A stretch of DNA of 64,000 nucleotides from an uncultured Candidatus Saccharibacteria bacterium (GTDB lineage: Bacteria; Patescibacteriota; Saccharimonadia; Saccharimonadales; EFPC-124), in contig CAYOML010000001.1 in NCBI GenBank assembly GCA_964405095.1, positions 23,311 through 87,310 on the forward strand, read 5' to 3'. Position 1 is the stretch's first letter. Each line of letters begins with the position of its first letter. Of this stretch, positions 99-43,349 are shown piece after piece. Position numbers and translations under genes: made by a program. The notes beneath the pieces were generated by a model. That model had not been told where the DNA came from. It saw nothing but the letters and a program-made list of their open reading frames with translations, and made no database searches.

Positions 99-524
99 CT
101 AGTGAGCGCACTTCGCAACCCTGAAGCTATGGAACGAGATCCATATAACCCAAACTTGACCTATAAAGGCACTAATTGCCTCTAATAGCAAAACAAACTC
201 ACTATCTTTAGGCACTGTCATAAATAGCAACATAATAAGCCCACTTAGCCCCACTGCCCAGTACGAAATTGGCTGGACGGTTGAGCCTTTATTGTGTTTG
301 CCCATAAAGTAGATACCTGCTAAAAAAGTTAACGAAAAGAACAGCGCCAAGATCCTATGAACAACATCACTTGCAACGTTATTAGGATCGAAAGGCGTGA
401 GAGCCAATATTGCATAGCCAATCATTGAAGCCGTAAATAGCCTTACAGGTACAACGTAGCATTTCTTAAGATGATATCTTGTAAAAACCCAAAAGCTGGT
501 TGCAGCGATCGTCAAACAAAACAT
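99..524 (-). CDS. hypothetical integral membrane protein (about 4 predicted TM helices)
   Basis: ORF track; hydrophobic segments throughout; no recognisable motif. Confidence 0.4.
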   Translation of the reverse strand: MFCLTIAATSFWVFTRYHLKKCYVVPVRLFTASMIGYAILALTPFDPNNVASDVVHRILALFFSLTFLAGIYFMGKHNKGSTVQPISYWAVGLSGLIMLLFMTVPKDSEFVLLLEAISAFIGQVWVIWISFHSFRVAKCAH

Positions 525-3348: not shown

Positions 3349-3380
3349 AACAAAAAAGACTTCCGAAGAAGTCTTTTAAG
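3349..3380 (-). terminator. intrinsic terminator hairpin aaaagacttccgaagaagtctttt plus T-run on the minus strand, downstream of the NYN gene
   Basis: perfect 9-bp stem; minus-strand reading is followed by ttttgttatg. Confidence 0.5.
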
Positions 3381-5294: not shown

Positions 5295-7136
5295 ATGTTT
5301 ATTGTTCCCGATTCAATCGAGCGCCGAGTAGGTGCCGAGGAAGCTGCTATTCAAAGCCGTCTCCGCCAACCGGTTCCTTTAGCGACCGAAACAACCTTAC
5401 AGGAAGTGTACGGCGCGGTTGAGGCAGATGTAGCACATGTTATTGCTGACACGTACGACCTGGCTGAGCCGGATGTAGTAATTGACGATATTCCCGGTCA
5501 CCTCGACCACATGGATATTGCCGTCCCAATGTTCCCATACGCCAGGGCAGCACGCACCAGTCCGACTGTAATTGGCCAGGTTGTCGGGTCTTCCCTAGGC
5601 CCCGTCTTGCCAATGGGAATCGACAGCGTCGAAACAACCGGCCCTTACGTCAATATGCGCTTAGACCGCCCGCAGCTGTTTGATGCCGGCCTCCGTGAGG
5701 TACTCACCCAGGGCAGCGCATATGGCAAAGGGAACGTCCAACACGGCAAAACCGTTTTTATTGATTATTCATCACCCAACATAGCTAAGCATCTCGGCAT
5801 CCAACATATCCCTACGACTATAGTAGGTGAGAGCCTGGCCCGTATTAATGAGGCCGAGGGCGCTCACGTTGTCCGCGCTAACTACCTGGGCGACTTTGGC
5901 ACACCATTCGGTAAGATACTGGTTGGCATCGATCGCTACGGCGACCCTGTAGAATTGGCTGCAGACCTAGTTGGCCAGATGCACACGCTGTACGTACGGG
6001 TAAACCGCGAGGTCAAAACCGACCCCGAACTAAGCGAGGCCGTTCGCGACGCATCTGCCCGCCTAGAAAACTCTGACCCCGAGGCAATGCGGGTCTGGGA
6101 AGCGGCCCGTGAGGCTAACATTGCCGAAAACGATGCTCTATACGAGCGTTTAGGCATTCACTTTGACACCACCGCTGGCGAAAGCTATTTTGCCAATTCT
6201 GGCCAAGAGCTAATCGACGAATTGCTAGACCAAGGCATCGCCGTCGAAGAGAACGGTGTTGTCGTTATACCCGCGTCAGACGATACTGATCCGCTTGTTT
6301 TGCGCAGATCCGATGGCTCAACACTGTATGGTACGCGTGATTTAGCCGCTCTGCGTTACCGCGTAGAACGCTACAATCCCGACATTATCAAATATGTCGT
6401 TGGCGCCGAGCAATCTGGCCATTTTGCAAGCGTATTTGCTGTAGCCGCCTTGTCGCGCATTATTAAAAGCCGCGACCAGGTGGAGCATGTGAAGCTCGGC
6501 TTATTTGCCGATCAGACTGGGCGAAAATTGTCATCTCGCAGTGGTGCTACCGACGCTTTTGCTGACCTTGTGGACAACGCCATTGCTACCGCCCACGACA
6601 GTTTGACCGAACGCTACACCGACCAACCGGAACGCCTGGCCGATGTGCCCGAACTGGCACGCAAGCTGGGCATCGCCGCTATTATGTACAGCGTTCTGCG
6701 CCGTGAGGCATCATCAAACACAGTTATTACCCCCGACCTAGGTGTAACCCGTGAAGCGGGTACCGCCGGCTACCTGCAATATACCCACGCCCGGGCGAAT
6801 AGCATCGTGGAACGAGCTGGCCTGTCGGACAATGAATTGCTCGATGGAGAATTGGCTTTTACCACAGACGCCGAGTGGAGGGTTGCCAGAGCAATTATGG
6901 CCTTCCCAGACAGCGTTGCCAGGGCTGCCGAAACAAACGGCCCACATTACATAGCTAAAGCGCTAGAAGACTTAGCTGGCGCGTTCAGCACTATGTACCA
7001 GGCGCGGGACATATCGATTTTAAGCGCCGAAGATCCCAATATCCGGCGTTCCCGCGTCGCCCTCACGCGTTCCGTGCAGGTTGTGTTACAAAACGGCTTA
7101 CAATTACTCAACATAGAAGCCCCCGACCGAATATAA
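5295..7136 (+). CDS. argS: arginine--tRNA ligase
   Basis: class I HIGH-type motif SSPNIAKHLGIQH, length and C-terminal anticodon-binding region typical of ArgS; start placed at ATG 5295, preceded by TATAGT (5282-5287), so likely leaderless; the track's longest ORF begins at 5259 (GTG). Confidence 0.9.
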   Translation: MFIVPDSIERRVGAEEAAIQSRLRQPVPLATETTLQEVYGAVEADVAHVIADTYDLAEPDVVIDDIPGHLDHMDIAVPMFPYARAARTSPTVIGQVVGSSLGPVLPMGIDSVETTGPYVNMRLDRPQLFDAGLREVLTQGSAYGKGNVQHGKTVFIDYSSPNIAKHLGIQHIPTTIVGESLARINEAEGAHVVRANYLGDFGTPFGKILVGIDRYGDPVELAADLVGQMHTLYVRVNREVKTDPELSEAVRDASARLENSDPEAMRVWEAAREANIAENDALYERLGIHFDTTAGESYFANSGQELIDELLDQGIAVEENGVVVIPASDDTDPLVLRRSDGSTLYGTRDLAALRYRVERYNPDIIKYVVGAEQSGHFASVFAVAALSRIIKSRDQVEHVKLGLFADQTGRKLSSRSGATDAFADLVDNAIATAHDSLTERYTDQPERLADVPELARKLGIAAIMYSVLRREASSNTVITPDLGVTREAGTAGYLQYTHARANSIVERAGLSDNELLDGELAFTTDAEWRVARAIMAFPDSVARAAETNGPHYIAKALEDLAGAFSTMYQARDISILSAEDPNIRRSRVALTRSVQVVLQNGLQLLNIEAPDRI

Positions 7137-18493: not shown

Positions 18494-18563
18494 AATATCC
18501 TCATGTTATCTGACGGACACTATAACGTCGAGCGTATGATTAAATCTAGTAAAGTCGACTTTA

Positions 18564-18715
18564 GTTAACCTGATTCTAAAAACCTAATACTCATGGCCGG
18601 GTCCTGCCGAGCGGTCCGCCCCTAGTTTATATTTTTGGAATACCAAAGATAAAACCTGGGGCCGCCCCGCCGCTCGTCACCCCTTTAGTTATTTGGTTTT
18701 TAGAATCAAGTTAAC
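18564..18715. repeat. nested palindromic element, copy A (outer AT-rich IR, middle GC-rich IR, inner AT-rich IR)
   Basis: outer IR gttaacctgattctaaaaacc / ggtttttagaatcaagttaac; middle gggtcctgccgagcggtccgcccc / ggggccgccccgccgctcgtcacccc; homologous copies at 36263-36398 and 37455-37593. Confidence 0.7.
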
Positions 18716-19193
18716 TAGCCTTGATCCTGCTATAAGAATAATCTTTAGTCTTATGCCAAGTTCGACTCTGTGGGTCATAGGCCCGGACCTCGCCCTTGAT
18801 CTTGGCAATACGCACCAGGGCAGGGTTATATGGGGCAAGGTTTCTGTAGTAGCGCAGGTCATCATCTGACGTAATGTGCTTACCTGGGAACATGGCTTTA
18901 AACTTTTCACCACCGACACGATTAAAATAATCGGTTTCGCCATTTGGCGGCAAAAACTGGTCGGCTTCCAGGTTCATACGCATAACAATTTTCTGCACAT
19001 CATCGAGTAGCTGCGCCGCCTGAGATGCCACATAAAGCAAAACCTGCCCAGTAGTCGTTTTAAACAATGTGCCCTGGGCAGTAATCCCCACCGGTGCACT
19101 ACGAACAATCACCTCGGCAATATCTAGCACCACACCGAATTTTTCCTGGGCTGATTTTTCTATGGCTATATCACCAAAGATCTCGTCATTCAT
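18711..19193 (-). CDS. hypothetical protein
   Basis: ORF track only; its stop codon lies within the outer IR of repeat copy A. Confidence 0.4.
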   Translation of the reverse strand: MNDEIFGDIAIEKSAQEKFGVVLDIAEVIVRSAPVGITAQGTLFKTTTGQVLLYVASQAAQLLDDVQKIVMRMNLEADQFLPPNGETDYFNRVGGEKFKAMFPGKHITSDDDLRYYRNLAPYNPALVRIAKIKGEVRAYDPQSRTWHKTKDYSYSRIKAS

Positions 19194-35139: not shown

Positions 35140-36246
35140 GTGGCAAAAAAGACAAACACTAAAAAAATCTCCTTGCACCGGCGCTTGTTGCAGCGTTTAC
35201 GCTCGCGGCATTTTATGCCTATGTATGAATTCTGGCTCGAACACCGCTGGTGGCGTTGGACAGCGCGTATTATGCTGGTGTTAGCCGGCTTTACATTCAC
35301 TGCTCTTCTTTTTAACGTTTTTGTGTTCACGCCAATAAAGGATCCTGACTATGGGGTCAGTTTTTCGCAAAAACGATCCGAGGAGTTGGGGCTTAACTGG
35401 CACCAAAATTTCACTGCTTTACTCGACGACTTACAAATTAAACGCTACCGGCTAATGAGTTACTGGGATCTCATCGAGGCCAATCGCGGGACCTTTGATT
35501 TTAAGGATTTGGACTGGCAGATGGATCAAGCCGCAGCACACGGCGCCAAAGTTTCACTCTCGATTGGTGTGCGTGTCCCGCGCTGGCCGGAATGTCACGA
35601 GCCTGGTTGGGCTAAACAGATGGGTGGCCACAGCTGGAAACAGGCCCTGTACGCCTATATGCAAGTGGTGGTTGATCGATACAAACATCATCCAGCTTTA
35701 GATACATGGCAGCTGGAAAATGAAGGCCTAAATACCTGGTTTGGAACCTGTAGCCCACCGGATAACGAAAGACTCCACGAGGAACTAGGTTTAATGAAGC
35801 GCTGGGATCCCGATCATAAAGTTATCATGAGTCTCAGCGATCAACACACTTACCCGGTAGAGGCGCCTGTACCCGATGTTTACGGCTTTTCGGTTTATCG
35901 TATTGTTTGGAACGACAAAATTCCGCCGGCCGGTTACATTTATTACCCAACACCTATCTGGTACCACCGCCTACGAGCTTTAATCATAAATCTTGTTTGG
36001 CAGCGACCAGTTATGATCCACGAGTTGCAGATGGAGCCGTGGGGGCGAGTCGATACGCGTTTTATGAGTATCGAGGAACAAAACAAGTCGATGAGCCTTG
36101 AGCAGATTCCTAAGGTTTTCCAGTTTGCCAGACAGTTGGGCATTAAACGGATCGATTTGTGGGGCGGGGAGTGGTGGTATTGGCGTAAGGTTCATGGCGA
36201 CGGAAGTATTTGGCAGGCGGTACGGGAGCAGTTGAGTGCACCTTAG
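35140..36246 (+). CDS. membrane-anchored putative glycoside hydrolase (TIM-barrel, clan GH-A-like)
   Basis: N-terminal TM; WQLENEG candidate acid/base Glu block; aromatic-rich barrel-like sequence; family assignment uncertain. Confidence 0.45.
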   Translation: MAKKTNTKKISLHRRLLQRLRSRHFMPMYEFWLEHRWWRWTARIMLVLAGFTFTALLFNVFVFTPIKDPDYGVSFSQKRSEELGLNWHQNFTALLDDLQIKRYRLMSYWDLIEANRGTFDFKDLDWQMDQAAAHGAKVSLSIGVRVPRWPECHEPGWAKQMGGHSWKQALYAYMQVVVDRYKHHPALDTWQLENEGLNTWFGTCSPPDNERLHEELGLMKRWDPDHKVIMSLSDQHTYPVEAPVPDVYGFSVYRIVWNDKIPPAGYIYYPTPIWYHRLRALIINLVWQRPVMIHELQMEPWGRVDTRFMSIEEQNKSMSLEQIPKVFQFARQLGIKRIDLWGGEWWYWRKVHGDGSIWQAVREQLSAP

Positions 36247-36262
36247 ATATTATTGAAAGTAT

Positions 36263-36398
36263 AGGCATAGAATTCTAATACATATGGCCGGGTCCTGCCG
36301 CCCGGTCCGCCCCTAAAGATTTTTTTATGGAAATACATAAAAAAACTTTGGGGCAGCCCCGCCAGGCGTCACCCCTTGAATAATTGAATTCTATGCCT
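36263..36398. repeat. nested palindromic element, copy B
   Basis: outer IR aggcatagaattctaata / taattgaattctatgcct; middle gggtcctgccgcccggtccgcccc / ggggcagccccgccaggcgtcacccc; centre ggaaatac. Confidence 0.7.
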
Positions 36399-37428
36399 TT
36401 ATTTTCAGCACAACTCGATAGGCTTCGACAAGTTTTTGCCCGCCGGCCTTACTATCGAATCGTGCAGCCATACCGTGCGCTTTAGAAACTGCTCCGACAT
36501 AAAAATTGGCATCGCTAATTAAGTGCGATAATAATGTCACAAATGTTTCGTCGGTACCACGCACAACATCTTCACCAAATGTATCGTTGTATTCGGGTAT
36601 GTCGCGCACGACAATCGGCAGCCCGGTACCGGCGGCTTCGAGCACCGCCATCGGATGATTTTCTTGTTCAGACGGCAGAAAAAACACATCTGATACTTGT
36701 AAGTATTGCTTAACATCATCGTGCCCGATGACCCCTGTCACCAAGACGTTGGCCGGCTTGGTATCAACTAGGTGCTGTTGATTTTGGTAGTCAGCTCCCA
36801 AACGCTTAAAGGTGATGCCACCGATCCATATAAACTGGCTATTGGGCAAAGCTTTTGCGGCTTCGCAGAACAAATCGAACCGCTTGCGAGGTTGGATTTG
36901 GCCGTTGCCAACGACCACTTTTTTATCTGGTTCGATGCCGAGTTTCTTACGCGCTGCTTGCTTGTCGACAGCCAATGTGACAAACAGCGACATATCAACT
37001 GTATTGTAAAGAACGATGACAGGTTTTTTGATTTTTAGCTGTTCATGAAGAGTAGTTTCGACCATTTTAGAAACCGCGAGCAACAGATCGGCGTGTCCAT
37101 AAAACAGCCGCATGTACCATTTGGCTAGGCCATAAAAATATTTTGCACCGGCGATCGAGCCAACCAAAGAATCCGGCACGACGTGCACCGAAATGACTTT
37201 TTTGCCTGAACCGAATAACAAATGCAACAAACTATATGGGCCGAAGGTTTGTATATGAGTGATATCAGCCCGACGGCGGAATTTATTAACCACCACATCT
37301 GTGTCATCACGCGCTTGTAGCGCATTGGTCATCTCGACAAAAGCTGTGTGCACGCCGTGTGCCTGAACAGTAAATGCGCTTTCTGATACCATATTGATTT
37401 TGATTTTTTGTTGCATTAATGAGTTCAT
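36391..37428 (-). CDS. glycosyltransferase family 4 (GT-B fold)
   Basis: LEAAGTGLPIVVRD block typical of the GT4 C-terminal domain. Confidence 0.75.
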   Translation of the reverse strand: MNSLMQQKIKINMVSESAFTVQAHGVHTAFVEMTNALQARDDTDVVVNKFRRRADITHIQTFGPYSLLHLLFGSGKKVISVHVVPDSLVGSIAGAKYFYGLAKWYMRLFYGHADLLLAVSKMVETTLHEQLKIKKPVIVLYNTVDMSLFVTLAVDKQAARKKLGIEPDKKVVVGNGQIQPRKRFDLFCEAAKALPNSQFIWIGGITFKRLGADYQNQQHLVDTKPANVLVTGVIGHDDVKQYLQVSDVFFLPSEQENHPMAVLEAAGTGLPIVVRDIPEYNDTFGEDVVRGTDETFVTLLSHLISDANFYVGAVSKAHGMAARFDSKAGGQKLVEAYRVVLKIKA

Positions 37429-37454
37429 TGTAGCAAACGAGGATAATTTCAGAT

Positions 37455-37593
37455 TGAACTCATTTCAAAACCATAAGGAAGGGGTCCTGTCACGCAGTTT
37501 GCCCCTAAAATATTTTTCTGAAAATACAGAAAAAGTATTTTGGGGCGGCCCCACTGCGCGCCACCCCATTTAATTAAGTTTTGAAATGGGTTC
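37455..37593. repeat. nested palindromic element, copy C
   Basis: outer IR gaactcatttcaaaacc / gttttgaaatgggttc; middle ggggtcctgtcacgcagtttgcccc / ggggcggccccactgcgcgccacccc; centre gaaaatac. Confidence 0.7.
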
Positions 37594-37620
37594 ATTAAGT
37601 TATACTTAACAGAGAGCAAT

Positions 37621-38097
37621 ATGGCCAAGAAGAAAACTACCAACTCACTGATTCAAAACCGCCGCGCCCGTTACGATTACGAACTACGCGATGAATTCAA
37701 TGTAGGCATTGCTTTGACAGGCCAAGAAGTCAAGGCTGCTAGATCGGGGCAGGTGAGTTTGAAAGGCGCTTACGTGACATTAAAAGACGGGGAGGTATGG
37801 CTAACCAACGCGTCGTTCTCGGTTATTCATACTGAGCCGGGTAAATCTAGTCGTAGCATCGAGACCGGGCCGCGCAAACTTTTGGCCAAAAAGAAAGAAA
37901 TTGCCGTGTTACAGGCTGTGAAGGATCAGGGCCTAACTATAGTGCCACTTAGCATGACCACTCGTACTAGGTTCATTAAGCTCAAAATTGCCACAGCCAA
38001 GGGTAAAAAACAATACGATAAGCGCGAAACTATTAAGCGCAAGGATATCCAGCGCGAGCAGCAGCGCACTAGAGCCTCAGTTGGCAAGGTCTTGTAA
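37621..38097 (+). CDS. smpB: SsrA-binding protein SmpB
   Basis: 158 aa; conserved N-terminal RRARYDYELRDEF..GIAL.G.EVK core. Confidence 0.9.
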   Translation: MAKKKTTNSLIQNRRARYDYELRDEFNVGIALTGQEVKAARSGQVSLKGAYVTLKDGEVWLTNASFSVIHTEPGKSSRSIETGPRKLLAKKKEIAVLQAVKDQGLTIVPLSMTTRTRFIKLKIATAKGKKQYDKRETIKRKDIQREQQRTRASVGKVL

Positions 38098-40217: not shown

Positions 40218-41015
40218 ATGAAACTTTACTCATGGAATGTTAATGGTATTCGCGCAGTCGTGCGCAAGGGATTGTTCAAACCTTTTATTGATGCCGAGCA
40301 GCCCGACATTTTATGTCTCCAAGAAACCAAGGCCGAGCAAGGTCAAGCCGAGATCGATCTAGCTGGTTACGAAGAATACTGGAATTCCGCCACCAAAGCA
40401 GGCTACTCGGGTACAGCTATCTTCAGCAAAATCAAACCAACAGCTGTTATTAATGGTTTTCCGGAAGATATTGCCAAAAAATACAGCTTGGTCGACGACC
40501 ACGACCGCGATTCCAGCACCGAAGGTCGTGTCATCGCCGCAGAGTTCGAAAAGTTTTATGTAGTAACAGTTTACACCCCTAACGCCAAGGATGACCTCAG
40601 CCGCATCCCACTACGCTCGCGGCATTGGGACCCGGCGTTTTTGGCTTACTGCAAACAGCTCGAACAAAAAAAGCCGGTTATCTTTTGCGGTGACTTAAAT
40701 GTAGCCCACACCGAAGACGACCTAGCGCGCCCCAAAGAAAATATTGGCAAAAAGGGCTTTACCAAAGAAGAGCGTGAGCGATTTCAAGACTTTATCGACG
40801 CTGGATTTATCGACAGCTTGCGATTATTCGAACAGGGGAATGGTCATTACACCTGGTGGACACATTGGGCCAACGCCCGCGCTCGGAATGTTGGTTGGCG
40901 TATAGATTACATTCTGGTTTCGGTCGCTTTAAAGAATAAGGTAAAAGCCGCGAAAATTCACGCCGACGTCATGGGATCAGACCATTGCCCGGTGAGTATC
41001 GAGATCGACATATAG
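40218..41015 (+). CDS. xth: exodeoxyribonuclease III (AP endonuclease)
   Basis: N-terminal SWNVNG..R, QETK, and C-terminal SDHCPV motifs of the EEP-fold ExoIII family. Confidence 0.9.
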   Translation: MKLYSWNVNGIRAVVRKGLFKPFIDAEQPDILCLQETKAEQGQAEIDLAGYEEYWNSATKAGYSGTAIFSKIKPTAVINGFPEDIAKKYSLVDDHDRDSSTEGRVIAAEFEKFYVVTVYTPNAKDDLSRIPLRSRHWDPAFLAYCKQLEQKKPVIFCGDLNVAHTEDDLARPKENIGKKGFTKEERERFQDFIDAGFIDSLRLFEQGNGHYTWWTHWANARARNVGWRIDYILVSVALKNKVKAAKIHADVMGSDHCPVSIEIDI

Positions 41016-41115
41016 ATTGAGGATAATATGTTATTCATACATTGACATTAATTGTAAAGAAGTAAACGCTTCATACAAATAAAGTCTAGACAGATCAAGT
41101 ATATACACATATAAT

Positions 41116-41910
41116 GTGCGAACTATGGTGGTGCACCAACATTCAGCAGGCAAGATAGCCCAAAAATTTGCCGTCTTTGATATCGACGGCACTCTATTCC
41201 GCGCAAACCTCACAGCGACACTACTACTTAGTCTTATTGACAAGGGTTTGATAAACAAAAAAGTGCTGACGGAAATAACGCCACATTATTTAGCCTGGAA
41301 GAACCGCGAACGCCCTGAAGCCTTCATCCAATATGACGAACACTTAGTAGAGCTTTTGAGCACCAACATCCACGGTATACCGCATGCTGAAATTATCAAA
41401 ATCATTCCATCTATGGTGGAGGAGATACACAAAAAGACCTACGTTTACACCCGAAATCTGATTGCCAAACTCAAAAACGAGGGTTATGTATTGGTCGCCA
41501 TTACTACGTCATTGCGAGAGGTAGCTCAACCTTTCGTGGACCATTATGGCTTCGACATCCTCAAAGCAAACATTATACGCTGCAACCGGCAGGGTATCTG
41601 TCAAAGTACGACACCAGTTATCCGCAATAAGGAAATGGTGCTGCGTACGCTCACCCGAGATAGGGGTTTGATTATGAAAGATAGCTACGCTATAGGCGAC
41701 ACGCTCAGCGATGCAAATATGCTCAAATTAGTCAAACACCCAATCGCTTTCAATCCGTCTTTTGAACTATTTGAAGTAGCAAAGCACAAGGGCTGGTCGG
41801 TTGTCGTCGAGCGCAAAAATATTGTCTACCGGCTTGACGCCAAAAGCACCGAGGCATTTCACCATCATGAATTATCACACGACAACCACCCCGTGCTTAG
41901 TCATAAGTGA
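41116..41910 (+). CDS. HAD-superfamily hydrolase, subfamily IB-like
   Basis: motif I FDIDGTLF; internal cap domain; C-terminal GDTLSD motif IV. Confidence 0.6.
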   Translation: MRTMVVHQHSAGKIAQKFAVFDIDGTLFRANLTATLLLSLIDKGLINKKVLTEITPHYLAWKNRERPEAFIQYDEHLVELLSTNIHGIPHAEIIKIIPSMVEEIHKKTYVYTRNLIAKLKNEGYVLVAITTSLREVAQPFVDHYGFDILKANIIRCNRQGICQSTTPVIRNKEMVLRTLTRDRGLIMKDSYAIGDTLSDANMLKLVKHPIAFNPSFELFEVAKHKGWSVVVERKNIVYRLDAKSTEAFHHHELSHDNHPVLSHK

Positions 41911-41985
41911 CTAGGACTTGAGTGGTTTACTTTCTAGCCAACCTCTTTTGATTTTTTTAATCCGTCGATCATAATACTACGTAGT

Positions 41986-42777
41986 ATGAACTTAGATTAC
42001 TGGCTGAAACAAACACCTACCGAACCCCTCTTCCCGGATATCGAGTGGCAAAGACCCGAGCACAAGTCGCTAGCCGGCAAACTGTTGATTGTGGGCGGCA
42101 ACGCCCATGGCTTTGCAGCGGTTGCCCAGGCCCACGGCGACGCGACCAAAGCCGGAATCGGTGAGTGCCGGGTCGTTTTACCCGACGCACTTAAAAAGGC
42201 GATTGACCCACTAGCACTCGACTGTGTGTTTGTCCCAACTAACCACAGTGGTGGCATAACCAAAGATAGTCTACCGCAACTCAAGGCTGCGGCTGCCTGG
42301 GCCGATGCTGTTTTACTAATTGGTGATGCCGGCCGCAACAGTGAAACAGCCATAGTCTATGAGTCGTTATTACAAGCCTTCCCAGACAAAGTCAGCATTA
42401 TAACTCGCGACGCAGCAGATCTTGTTAAGGCTGTCTGGCCACAACTGCTCGGCCGCCAGCCTGTAGTTTTAATCGTCACTTTCGCCCAGTTGCAAAAATT
42501 ATTCCAGAGCGTATATTACCCGCGAACCATGTTATTTAGCATGCAGCTCTCCAGCTTGGTGGAGGCATTGCACAAGTTTACGATTACGTACCCGGCTGCG
42601 ATTGTTGTTTTTCATAACAACCAACTTATCGTAGCCCAAAATGGGCAGGTTAGCAGCACACCCTGGGAAGAGCCAATGCTGATCTGGCGGGGAAGTGTGG
42701 CCTCGCGGGCAGCTGTGTACGCAATTCAACATAAACAGCTATTCCAGGCACTAACAGCGTCTTTCATCCACAAGTAG
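41986..42777 (+). CDS. hypothetical protein, possibly YjeF-C/Nnr2-like (carbohydrate-kinase-fold)
   Basis: LLIVGGN...AVLLIGDAGRN pattern loosely resembles NAD(P)H-hydrate dehydratase; weak. Confidence 0.35.
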   Translation: MNLDYWLKQTPTEPLFPDIEWQRPEHKSLAGKLLIVGGNAHGFAAVAQAHGDATKAGIGECRVVLPDALKKAIDPLALDCVFVPTNHSGGITKDSLPQLKAAAAWADAVLLIGDAGRNSETAIVYESLLQAFPDKVSIITRDAADLVKAVWPQLLGRQPVVLIVTFAQLQKLFQSVYYPRTMLFSMQLSSLVEALHKFTITYPAAIVVFHNNQLIVAQNGQVSSTPWEEPMLIWRGSVASRAAVYAIQHKQLFQALTASFIHK

Positions 42778-43118: not shown

Positions 43119-43225
43119 TCCTCTCGTTCGGCTTTGAAGCCTCTACTCAAGCGTAAAGTAGGATTCCATGAACTGCCGACAGGCAGTTCATGCCCTATCG
43201 GGTTCAAGCCCTACTTATCTACGCA
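43119..43225. ncRNA. unassigned highly structured region (11-bp perfect hairpin catgaactgcc-gaca-ggcagttcatg nested inside a longer stem gcgtaaagtagg / cctacttatctacgc, plus hairpin ggctttgaagcc)
   Basis: self-complementarity seen directly in the sequence; the plus-strand track ORF 43134..43379 overlaps this region and the tRNA and is rejected. Confidence 0.3.
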
Positions 43226-43232
43226 AAAGAAA

Positions 43233-43262
43233 ATATCCCTCACGAGGGAGGGATATTTTCTT
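43233..43262 (-). terminator. intrinsic terminator hairpin atatccctc-acgagg-gagggatat flanked by T/A runs, immediately 3' of tRNA-Leu
   Basis: 9-bp stem, then tttctttt on the minus strand. Confidence 0.55.
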
Positions 43263-43263
43263 T

Positions 43264-43349
43264 TGGTGGGCAAGGAGGGACTTGAACCCTCACGACCTTG
43301 CGGCCACTGGATTTTGAGTCCAGCGCGTCTACCATTCCGCCACTCGCCC
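43264..43349 (-). tRNA. tRNA-Leu (anticodon CAA), class II with long variable arm
   Basis: reverse complement GGGCGAGTGGCGGAATGGTAGACGCGCTGGACTCAAAATCCAG..GGTTCAAGTCC..CCCACCA; anticodon loop CTCAAAA. Confidence 0.85.

Follow-up and report, generated by a model that had tools for sequence, protein, structure and literature searches.

Why does the same long palindrome stand on both sides of a single glycosyltransferase gene, once where two convergent genes meet and once between two divergent starts? The question is raised by a 64 kb stretch of DNA from an uncultured Candidatus Saccharibacteria bacterium (contig CAYOML010000001.1; the whole stretch is referred to here as the window, and position 1 is its first letter), in which a gene for a GT4 glycosyltransferase is bracketed by two copies of a palindromic unit. 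We call this unit, made up of a conserved core and a pair of outer arms, the nested-hairpin element. An earlier inspection of the letters of the window (the sequence-only reading) had noted these two copies, B and C, together with a third copy, A, and had doubted that they serve purely as intrinsic terminators. Our preferred interpretation, to which we assign a probability of roughly 0.6, is that A, B and C are small, selfish, non-autonomous mobile palindromic elements which are recognized by their shape and whose arms form when one flank is copied by snap-back or template switching. The analysis adds four points to the earlier inspection: the outer arms are specific to each locus, those of copy B come from the 3' end of a gene, the family is spread over at least three phyla, and some of its members lie in frame inside genes.

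Three copies of the nested-hairpin element

The window contains exactly three copies of the element, all in the same orientation (plus strand). Copy B lies between the convergent genes for a GH42-like protein (35140-36246, plus strand; PF02449, E = 3.3e-07) and for the GT4 glycosyltransferase (36391-37428, minus strand; PF00534 and PF13692). Its left outer arm (36254-36280) begins 8 nt past the end of the GH42-like gene (36246) and is 85% complementary over 27 nt to the right outer arm (36381-36407). The right arm is ancestral sequence and comprises the GT4 stop codon (36391-36393) and the last five codons of the gene. The core of copy B (36290-36374; 80.8 bits with the covariance model of the family) consists of GGGTCCTG, the first strand of a helix termed P3, GCCCC, an AT-rich hairpin, GGGGCAGCCCC, the second strand P3' and TCACCC. 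Copy C (37455-37597) occupies the region between the GT4 start (37428) and the start of smpB (37621-38097, plus strand; PF01668, E = 1.9e-43). Its core (37482-37566; 80.3 bits) is enclosed by arms of 17 nt at 37455-37471 and 37577-37593, which are complementary at 16 of 17 positions, and the right arm ends 27 nt ahead of the smpB start codon. Copy C belongs to a different subfamily from A and B, with GAAG ahead of the core, CACGCAG as its P3 strand and TTT in the internal loop. Copy A (18562-18717; 76.9 bits) has a core at 18599-18682 and arms of 28 nt (18562-18589 and 18690-18717) that are 93% complementary. It is flanked by two minus-strand open reading frames (ORFs), and its right arm covers the stop codon of one of them (18711-19193).

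Each conserved half-motif of the core occurs three times in the window, compared with 0.00-0.01 occurrences expected from shuffled sequences. With filters switched off, the covariance model finds three full copies only (77-81 bits), and the next in rank, at 19.6 bits, is one of these three read in antisense. Every copy is predicted to fold into a single long hairpin of -61 to -64 kcal/mol (z = -6 to -8.4 relative to shuffles). The view that this is a real repeat family with a conserved centre is supported. The positions given in the sequence-only reading for B and C, the inclusion of the GT4 stop codon in the right arm of B and the location of C in the divergent region all agree with the present analysis, in which B proved to be somewhat longer (36254-36407). 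The statement that three copies occur within 19 kb is right as a count, but three is also the total for the entire 64 kb.

Anatomy of the conserved core

The core was defined by aligning the three window copies and, later, 56-73 relatives. It is ~85 nt long and has the arrangement GGGTCCTG-P3-GCCCC-(variable hairpin)-GGGGCNGCCCC-P3'-YCACCC, with the locus-specific, mutually complementary outer arms on either side. The outermost core helix is (C/G)GGGU/ACCC(G/C), the outer pair of which covaries (C-G 43, G-C 19), and inward of GGGU/ACCC there is a CCU bulge followed by a G-C pair. The core also contains a pyrimidine-pyrimidine juxtaposition, which among distinct copies is C.U in 36 and U.C in 26, with one instance each of C.C and U.U. 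P3 is a helix of 7-8 bp that is free in sequence yet complementary, as is evident from the three window copies (CGAGCGG/CCGCTCG in A, CGCCCGG/CCAGGCG in B and CACGCAG/CTGCGCG in C). The internal loop has 2-3 nt on its 5' side and an invariant unpaired GCCCC on its 3' side. The innermost conserved helix, GCCCC/GGGGC, is capped by a terminal hairpin that varies freely in sequence and length and is AT-rich in Saccharibacteria and GC-rich in Acidobacteriota.

The pairing scheme was assessed over 66 distinct sequences; 97% of the cells are paired, in eight pairs both partners vary, and covariation reaches a score of 0.369 (shuffles, 0.129; slid controls, 0.066 or less). The invariant columns of the alignment are GGGTCCTG, CCC, GGGGC, GCCCC and CACCC, and GGGGCNGCCCC is an invariant 11-bp palindrome. 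Outside the core, ~7-15 unpaired nt on each side lead to the outer arms, which differ in sequence in every copy.

Related loci with and without the element

The order smpB-GT4-GH (GH being the glycoside-hydrolase-like gene, GH42-like in the window) is found in several relatives and allows the sites of copies B and C to be compared. In locus L104, where GT4 is 65% identical and the element is absent, the stop codons of GT4 and GH are 9 nt apart and the distance between smpB and GT4 is 76 nt, versus 192 nt in the window. In L110 and L111 (GT4 79% and 77% identical, respectively), which are likewise free of the element, the convergent GT4 and GH genes overlap by 18 and 8 nt. The covariance model gave no match in L104, L110 or L111. 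Because these relatives share the gene order and are element-free, B and C are insertions. A fourth and closer relative, L115 (GT4 82% identical), has an element directly 3' of the GT4 stop codon, oriented like copy B, and none upstream of GT4; its contig ends inside that element (1494-1522). Copy B was therefore gained before the split from L115, and copy C later or in a rearranged region. The comparison of orthologous intergenic regions, which had been proposed as a check on the earlier inspection, has thus revealed insertion polymorphism, with three relatives lacking the element and one carrying it after GT4.

The element fragments short-read assemblies, as is apparent from Logan contigs, both of this organism and of a near relative, that end at or inside it. 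One such contig, L001, encodes an identical smpB protein and starts 96 nt upstream of smpB, which corresponds to window position 37525, in the centre of copy C. The GT4 protein (P0001) is found with 100% identity on a Logan contig of 1206 nt, a length that, taken by itself, would equal the spacing of B and C from centre to centre. Searches for exact protein matches to GT4 and GH returned no recorded entry, probably owing to differing start-codon calls.

Outer arms and the ends of neighbouring genes

The origin of the arms is clearest for copy B. The GT4 C-terminus encoded in its right arm (...VLKIKA*) is homologous to ...VLVK* in the element-free locus L110, while the left arm has no counterpart in the element-free relatives. 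The left arm is the reverse complement of the right arm, now matching it at 20/22 to 23/27 positions, and derives from the GT4 3' end and the 10 nt downstream, copied in inverted form. The ancestral spacer between GT4 and GH measured at most ~17 nt, which is too short for a 27-nt arm. From this, it follows that an inverted copy of the right flank was added together with the unit, ~127 nt in all, and that nothing was overwritten.

Locus-specific arms are also seen elsewhere in the family. In the genome JARIHL01, near-identical or closely similar cores carry arms that are unrelated to each other and perfectly complementary over 27, 28, 28, 35 and 37 nt. Of the 18 G-type copies, defined by a G before GGGTCC and a C after CACCC, ten reach an arm score of at least 12, as do both window copies A and B. 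The same score is reached by four of 43 C-type copies (the acidobacterial copies included), compared with one of 62 shifted-flank controls. Two of the JARIHL01 loci, L011 and L092, have their spacers and the first few arm bases in common, which suggests that imprecise ends were carried over from a previous site.

At L011 (~6493-6651, in the orientation of the element), recF and a convergent ORF of 452 amino acids both end in ...NL*, encoded by two perfectly complementary arms; the C-terminus of one of the two genes has therefore been rewritten by the duplication. Either arm may be the ancestral one at this locus and at L064, where the element lies upstream of a pilin-like gene. A separate inverted repeat of 42 nt with a 6-nt spacer, 76% complementary, was noted at 43200-43289 of the window. 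Its right arm overlaps the 3' end of tRNA-Leu(CAA) (43264-43349, minus strand), and its left arm resembles an inverted partial copy of the T-arm and acceptor end of that tRNA. This repeat could be another inverted flank duplication or the remnant of an integration site.

Distribution and copy number

A single scan of 185,579 species genomes was made with a pattern of 23 specified bases. Among the matches listed, the genuine ones come from many metagenome-assembled genomes (MAGs) of Candidatus Saccharibacteria/Saccharimonadales, from Vicinamibacterales and other Acidobacteriota, and from Krumholzibacteriia. These also show the P3' strand and CACCC, both of which lie outside the search pattern; matches in Streptomyces and most other GC-rich genomes show neither and were discarded as chance. 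The family thus spans Saccharibacteria and at least two other phyla. Near-identical cores are present at unrelated loci of the same genome in JARIHL01 (L011, L014, L016 and L092), in CAISVS01 and its relatives, and in JBBQDM01, which has at least 14 copies.

No nested-hairpin element was found in IMG/VR viral contigs with the motif or in plasmids with blastn. Rfam searches at gathering and permissive thresholds matched no family to the element in the window or in 21 related loci from three phyla. The best match in the window, at the permissive threshold, was Flavo-1 with 20 bits, against a gathering score of 42, and the 21 loci gave tRNA and RNase P RNA alone, elsewhere in those loci. Literature searches yielded no described element of this kind in Saccharibacteria or Patescibacteria. 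The kink-turn, the bulge-helix-bulge intron, the HDV-like and hairpin ribozymes, SRP RNA, Y RNA and attC were each considered and rejected, as their defining motifs are missing from the sequence. The longest direct repeats flanking the copies have the same length distribution as those of a shifted control, and clustering of the ORFs within 1.5 kb of copies gave no recurring neighbour protein family, only local synteny.

Two arrangements in other genomes were noted. In one Saccharimonadales MAG, two copies stand in opposite orientation with 17 nt between them (L012, 110-196, plus strand, and 214-301, minus strand). Three related genomes (L042, L049 and L089) have orthologous copies with one common flank, and one flank recurs inverted on the other side, which suggests either element-associated inversions or much longer, degraded arms.

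Copies beside and inside genes

The genomic context was tabulated for 46 Saccharibacteria copies using crude ORF calls. The orientations of the flanking genes relative to the element were -- in 16 cases, ++ in 11, +- in seven and -+ in six. Six of the 46 copies, copy C included, lie between divergent starts, and copies are often found 5-80 nt past a stop codon. The range of sites that had been described for the window (downstream of genes, upstream of genes and between divergent starts) is confirmed.

The three window copies are intergenic, and all copies within genes come from other Saccharibacteria MAGs. The core is in frame inside Dus (L059 5958-6045, minus strand), TsaD (L060 1874-1964, plus strand) and a Mur ligase (L069 5821-5910, minus strand), in each case read antisense to GGGTCCTG; in an RNase HII-UPF0102 fusion (L090 2573-2651, minus strand) it occupies the linker and is read in the sense direction. 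For TsaD, 16 orthologues were aligned. Seven contain the peptide PARVAxGGAAP...EGADRLTGPxSSDLR in one surface loop and four have no insert there at all; a TsaD gene with the element is 153 nt longer than one without it, that is, by 51 codons, with the frame kept. The orthologues range from 359 to 476 amino acids in length because of inserts in this one loop. A profile of the element-encoded peptide, run against 5.8 billion proteins, recovered only 11 short ORFs, which had been called on intergenic copies.

In some genomes an additional conserved module is found 5' of the core, consisting of CCGCTYCCGTCGTC, a variable hairpin and CACGTAGGTYGCT. It is located at L059 6046-6100 (minus strand), at L060 1820-1873 (plus strand) and at the equivalent places of L090 and L098, and the genic copies carry it too. 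No match to the module was found in Rfam; within TsaD, one portion of it is complementary to the adjoining host codons (GCTTCCGTC).

Two further features of the window lie apart from the element. A short palindrome, AAAAGACTTCC-N-GGAAGTCTTTT, is present in three copies at 51-73, 593-615 and 3353-3377; it may be a shared small terminator-like hairpin, unrelated to the nested-hairpin element. Three tandem ORFs of ~264 amino acids each occupy 40218-42777, the first of which encodes a nuclease/phosphatase of the Exo_endo_phos family, and together they look like a local array of paralogues.

Alternative explanations

Several other explanations could be offered for such a set of palindromes. That they were produced by assembly or amplification is a negligible prospect: Logan contigs of the same organism and of a relative do end inside the element, and the 1206-nt length of a third contig fits, but the copies lie in the interior of a 64-kb contig, bordered on their two sides by different, intact genes, the family is present in independent assemblies of many projects, and the arms of 17-37 nt are below typical assembly k-mers. 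It is very improbable that the copies are duplicates of an ordinary bidirectional intrinsic terminator. Such a role would suit the many copies just past a stop codon and the position of B between convergent genes. However, no U-tract follows the stem on either strand (the arms are followed by GCCTTGATCC in A and GCACAACTCG in B, with no U/T tract), and a terminator scan gave no match at the borders of A, B and C. The idea put forward in the sequence-only reading that flanking T/A runs could terminate transcription in both directions is therefore not supported, and its doubt about a pure terminator role is upheld by the missing U-tract and by the seemingly unbiased orientation of the 46 copies. 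Copy C and the five other copies between divergent starts, as well as those within ORFs, are further difficulties for a terminator, and an asymmetric ~85-nt core conserved over phyla exceeds what one needs. A third possibility is that the element is a DNA site for a structure-specific protein, either a recombination site resembling attC or a site for a nucleoid or cruciform-binding protein, with GGGGCNGCCCC as the palindromic contact. Its use irrespective of orientation, its attC-like architecture (a conserved base with extrahelical bases and a variable terminal structure) and the invariant 11-bp palindrome would all be compatible with this proposal. We nevertheless consider it improbable, as the conserved core, read directly, is without the attC R boxes (RYYYAAC/GTTRRRY), the neighbours are housekeeping genes rather than cassettes and no recombinase is linked to the copies, while copies in frame within genes are hard to square with a site that serves chromosome architecture.

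The main rival is a structured RNA motif selected by the host, acting either in cis (as a stabilizer, an RNase III site or a protein-binding hairpin) or as a multicopy small RNA, with mobility accounting for its origin only. The cross-phylum core and the non-canonical covariation argue in its favour, and it is not exclusive with mobility. The loops and the bulge are conserved over three phyla, the helices and the C.U/U.C pair covary, the folds are strong, and compensatory changes that also change the protein sequence distinguish orthologous TsaD copies. Set against this are the lack of a conserved promoter or terminator or of an Rfam match, and the fact that the element faces either way with respect to flanking transcription, being found between divergent starts and also antisense within genes. 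Moreover, G.U counts favour neither strand, and close relatives manage without the element at the same loci. On balance we regard a host-selected RNA as an unlikely account of the family. The roles put forward in the sequence-only reading (transcript boundary, nucleoid or cruciform binding, small RNA) may apply, but a selfish mobile element is what the evidence favours in the first place.

A number of observations also weigh against the interpretation as mobile elements with copied flanks. Conservation of the core across phyla and its non-Watson-Crick covariation would fit a host-selected structured RNA equally well. The orthologous TsaD copies of L060 and L114 differ by a compensatory change in P3 and a swap of the Y.Y pair, both of which alter amino acids, so that either the fold is selected in place or the copies have been overwritten by gene conversion. 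Gene conversion among copies could, in addition, make cores look young beside old arms. Most C-type copies are without long arms and the formation of arms is thus not obligatory, and the side that was duplicated is firmly established for copy B only, with weaker cases in copy A and L014. Pfam scans of the 38 window ORFs revealed no transposase, reverse transcriptase or HUH gene, and none was found beside the copies elsewhere. Nor was an autonomous parent, in the form of separated half-sites enclosing a gene, found in the window and ~60 loci, where only degraded copies were seen. Finally, a test for the folding strand gave 21 G.T-type and 19 A.C-type mismatches in the terminal hairpin, without a clear preference for either strand; the automatic alignment also introduced spurious G.U pairs into the acidobacterial rows.

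A possible mechanism and its consequences

In the mechanism that we infer for a mobile element, the mobile unit would be ~100 nt in length, comprising the ~85-nt core and a few flanking bases. The core would fold as a single strand, of RNA or DNA, and a putative trans-acting enzyme would recognize its shape rather than the sequence of its stems. The unit would land in intergenic DNA in either orientation and, now and then, within a gene with the reading frame kept. Upon insertion or shortly afterwards, a stretch of 15-40 nt flanking the CACCC side would be copied in reverse complement onto the GGGTCCTG side, possibly through snap-back or template-switch synthesis for which the folded hairpin acts as primer. 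A template switch during replication is documented to produce, in one event, reverse-complement repeats together with perfect stems (PMC8794818). Copying of this kind would yield the locus-specific outer arms, which would then decay, reaching 85-93% complementarity in the window.

Effects on the host, such as hairpins at mRNA 3' ends, RNase III sites and displacement of promoters at smpB and GT4, are likely to be by-products. Copy B would add a hairpin of ~150 nt to the 3' ends of both convergent transcripts. The arms of copy C leave just 26 and 27 nt to the start codons of GT4 and smpB, so the promoters of the two genes should lie within or beyond the element. Each arm of copy C reads TTGAAA outward, and a promoter scan pairs this hexamer with TATCCT upstream of GT4, as a match to the consensus alone.

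A bolder proposal, which we hold only tentatively, is that the family represents a cross-phylum mobile hairpin of RNA or single-stranded DNA that inserts by target-primed synthesis. The core would be copied onto a nicked target, and the new strand would fold back to copy 15-40 nt of its own flank and only then be joined to the target again, leaving an inverted target-site duplication of fixed polarity. We know of no bacterial element for which such a transposition signature has been described. A family of this nature could seed new peptide insertions in essential proteins across Patescibacteria. Were flank duplication the regular product of insertion, it would point to an integration mechanism as yet undescribed in bacteria and provide a natural system in which template switching builds RNA or DNA hairpins.

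The genomes of Saccharibacteria and other candidate-phyla bacteria are tiny, and selfish repeats are considered scarce in them. An element with a structure-defined core kept from Saccharibacteria to Acidobacteriota, inserted beside and inside housekeeping genes, is of specialist interest, as is the way in which it breaks short-read assemblies at its centre and seems to build long hairpins from the ends of neighbouring genes. In practice, the covariance model can be used to mark assembly break points, small ORFs called in error and spurious protein 'insertions', as in TsaD, in Patescibacteria genomes.

Comparison with known systems

The nested-hairpin element is an undescribed family of the REP/RPE/MITE-like kind, the unusual features of which are the cross-phylum core and the inverted flank duplication. 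It fails the tests for MITEs, REPs, attC sites, terminators and Rfam families, as fixed terminal repeats and direct duplications, GTAG, R boxes, a U-tract and a covariance match are all missing. MITEs have fixed terminal inverted repeats and generate short direct target-site duplications. Like the bacterial representatives Correia/NEMIS and ERIC, the nested-hairpin element is small, non-autonomous, hairpin-forming and intergenic. In contrast to MITEs, its outermost inverted repeats are unrelated between near-identical cores, which have only the internal helices in common, and its direct flanking repeats are no longer than those of the shifted control. Bacterial MITEs can affect transcripts through RNase III sites and promoters (PMC10969869).

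The resemblance to REP sequences lies in the form of extragenic imperfect palindromes that are multicopy, often just past stop codons, in both orientations and without direct target duplication. REP, BIME and REPIN sequences are species-specific and are mobilized by RAYT, a Y1 transposase related to IS200/IS605, which recognizes them as folded single strands through their bulges. The nested-hairpin element is much longer than a REP, has a variable terminal hairpin and a core conserved over phyla, and shows no GTAG/CTAC tetranucleotide in that core when the alignment is read directly. No RAYT gene was found among the 38 ORFs scanned in the 64-kb window or beside the copies. Integron attC sites are active as a folded single strand in which structure counts over sequence. 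The conserved base with unpaired or extrahelical bases and the terminal structure of variable length are similar in the nested-hairpin element, but there are no R''/R' boxes, no cassette organization and no integrase nearby.

In its behaviour the element is also comparable to Rickettsia palindromic elements (RPEs), although it is not filed among them here. As in RPEs, a palindrome of ~100-150 bp without a transposase of its own is scattered in the small genome of a host-dependent bacterium, and it occupies intergenic sites as well as in-frame positions in unrelated protein genes, the latter in other Saccharibacteria genomes. It differs in its hosts, which are of another phylum than Rickettsia and belong to at least three phyla (Saccharibacteria, Acidobacteriota and Krumholzibacteriota), and in having locus-specific outer arms made from flanking DNA; to our knowledge, such flank-derived arms are not a described feature of RPEs. 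RPEs themselves are hairpin-forming repeats of ~100-150 bp that are found in intergenic regions and in frame within unrelated conserved genes, to which they add a peptide (PMC10969869).

The outer arms themselves look like the products of template-switch (quasipalindrome) mutation, which makes reverse-complement copies with perfect stems in one step (PMC8794818). Copy B differs from such products in that it gained length rather than having sequence replaced. Template-switch mutation is a general replication error, whereas in the nested-hairpin family one specific mobile core would nucleate it time and again.

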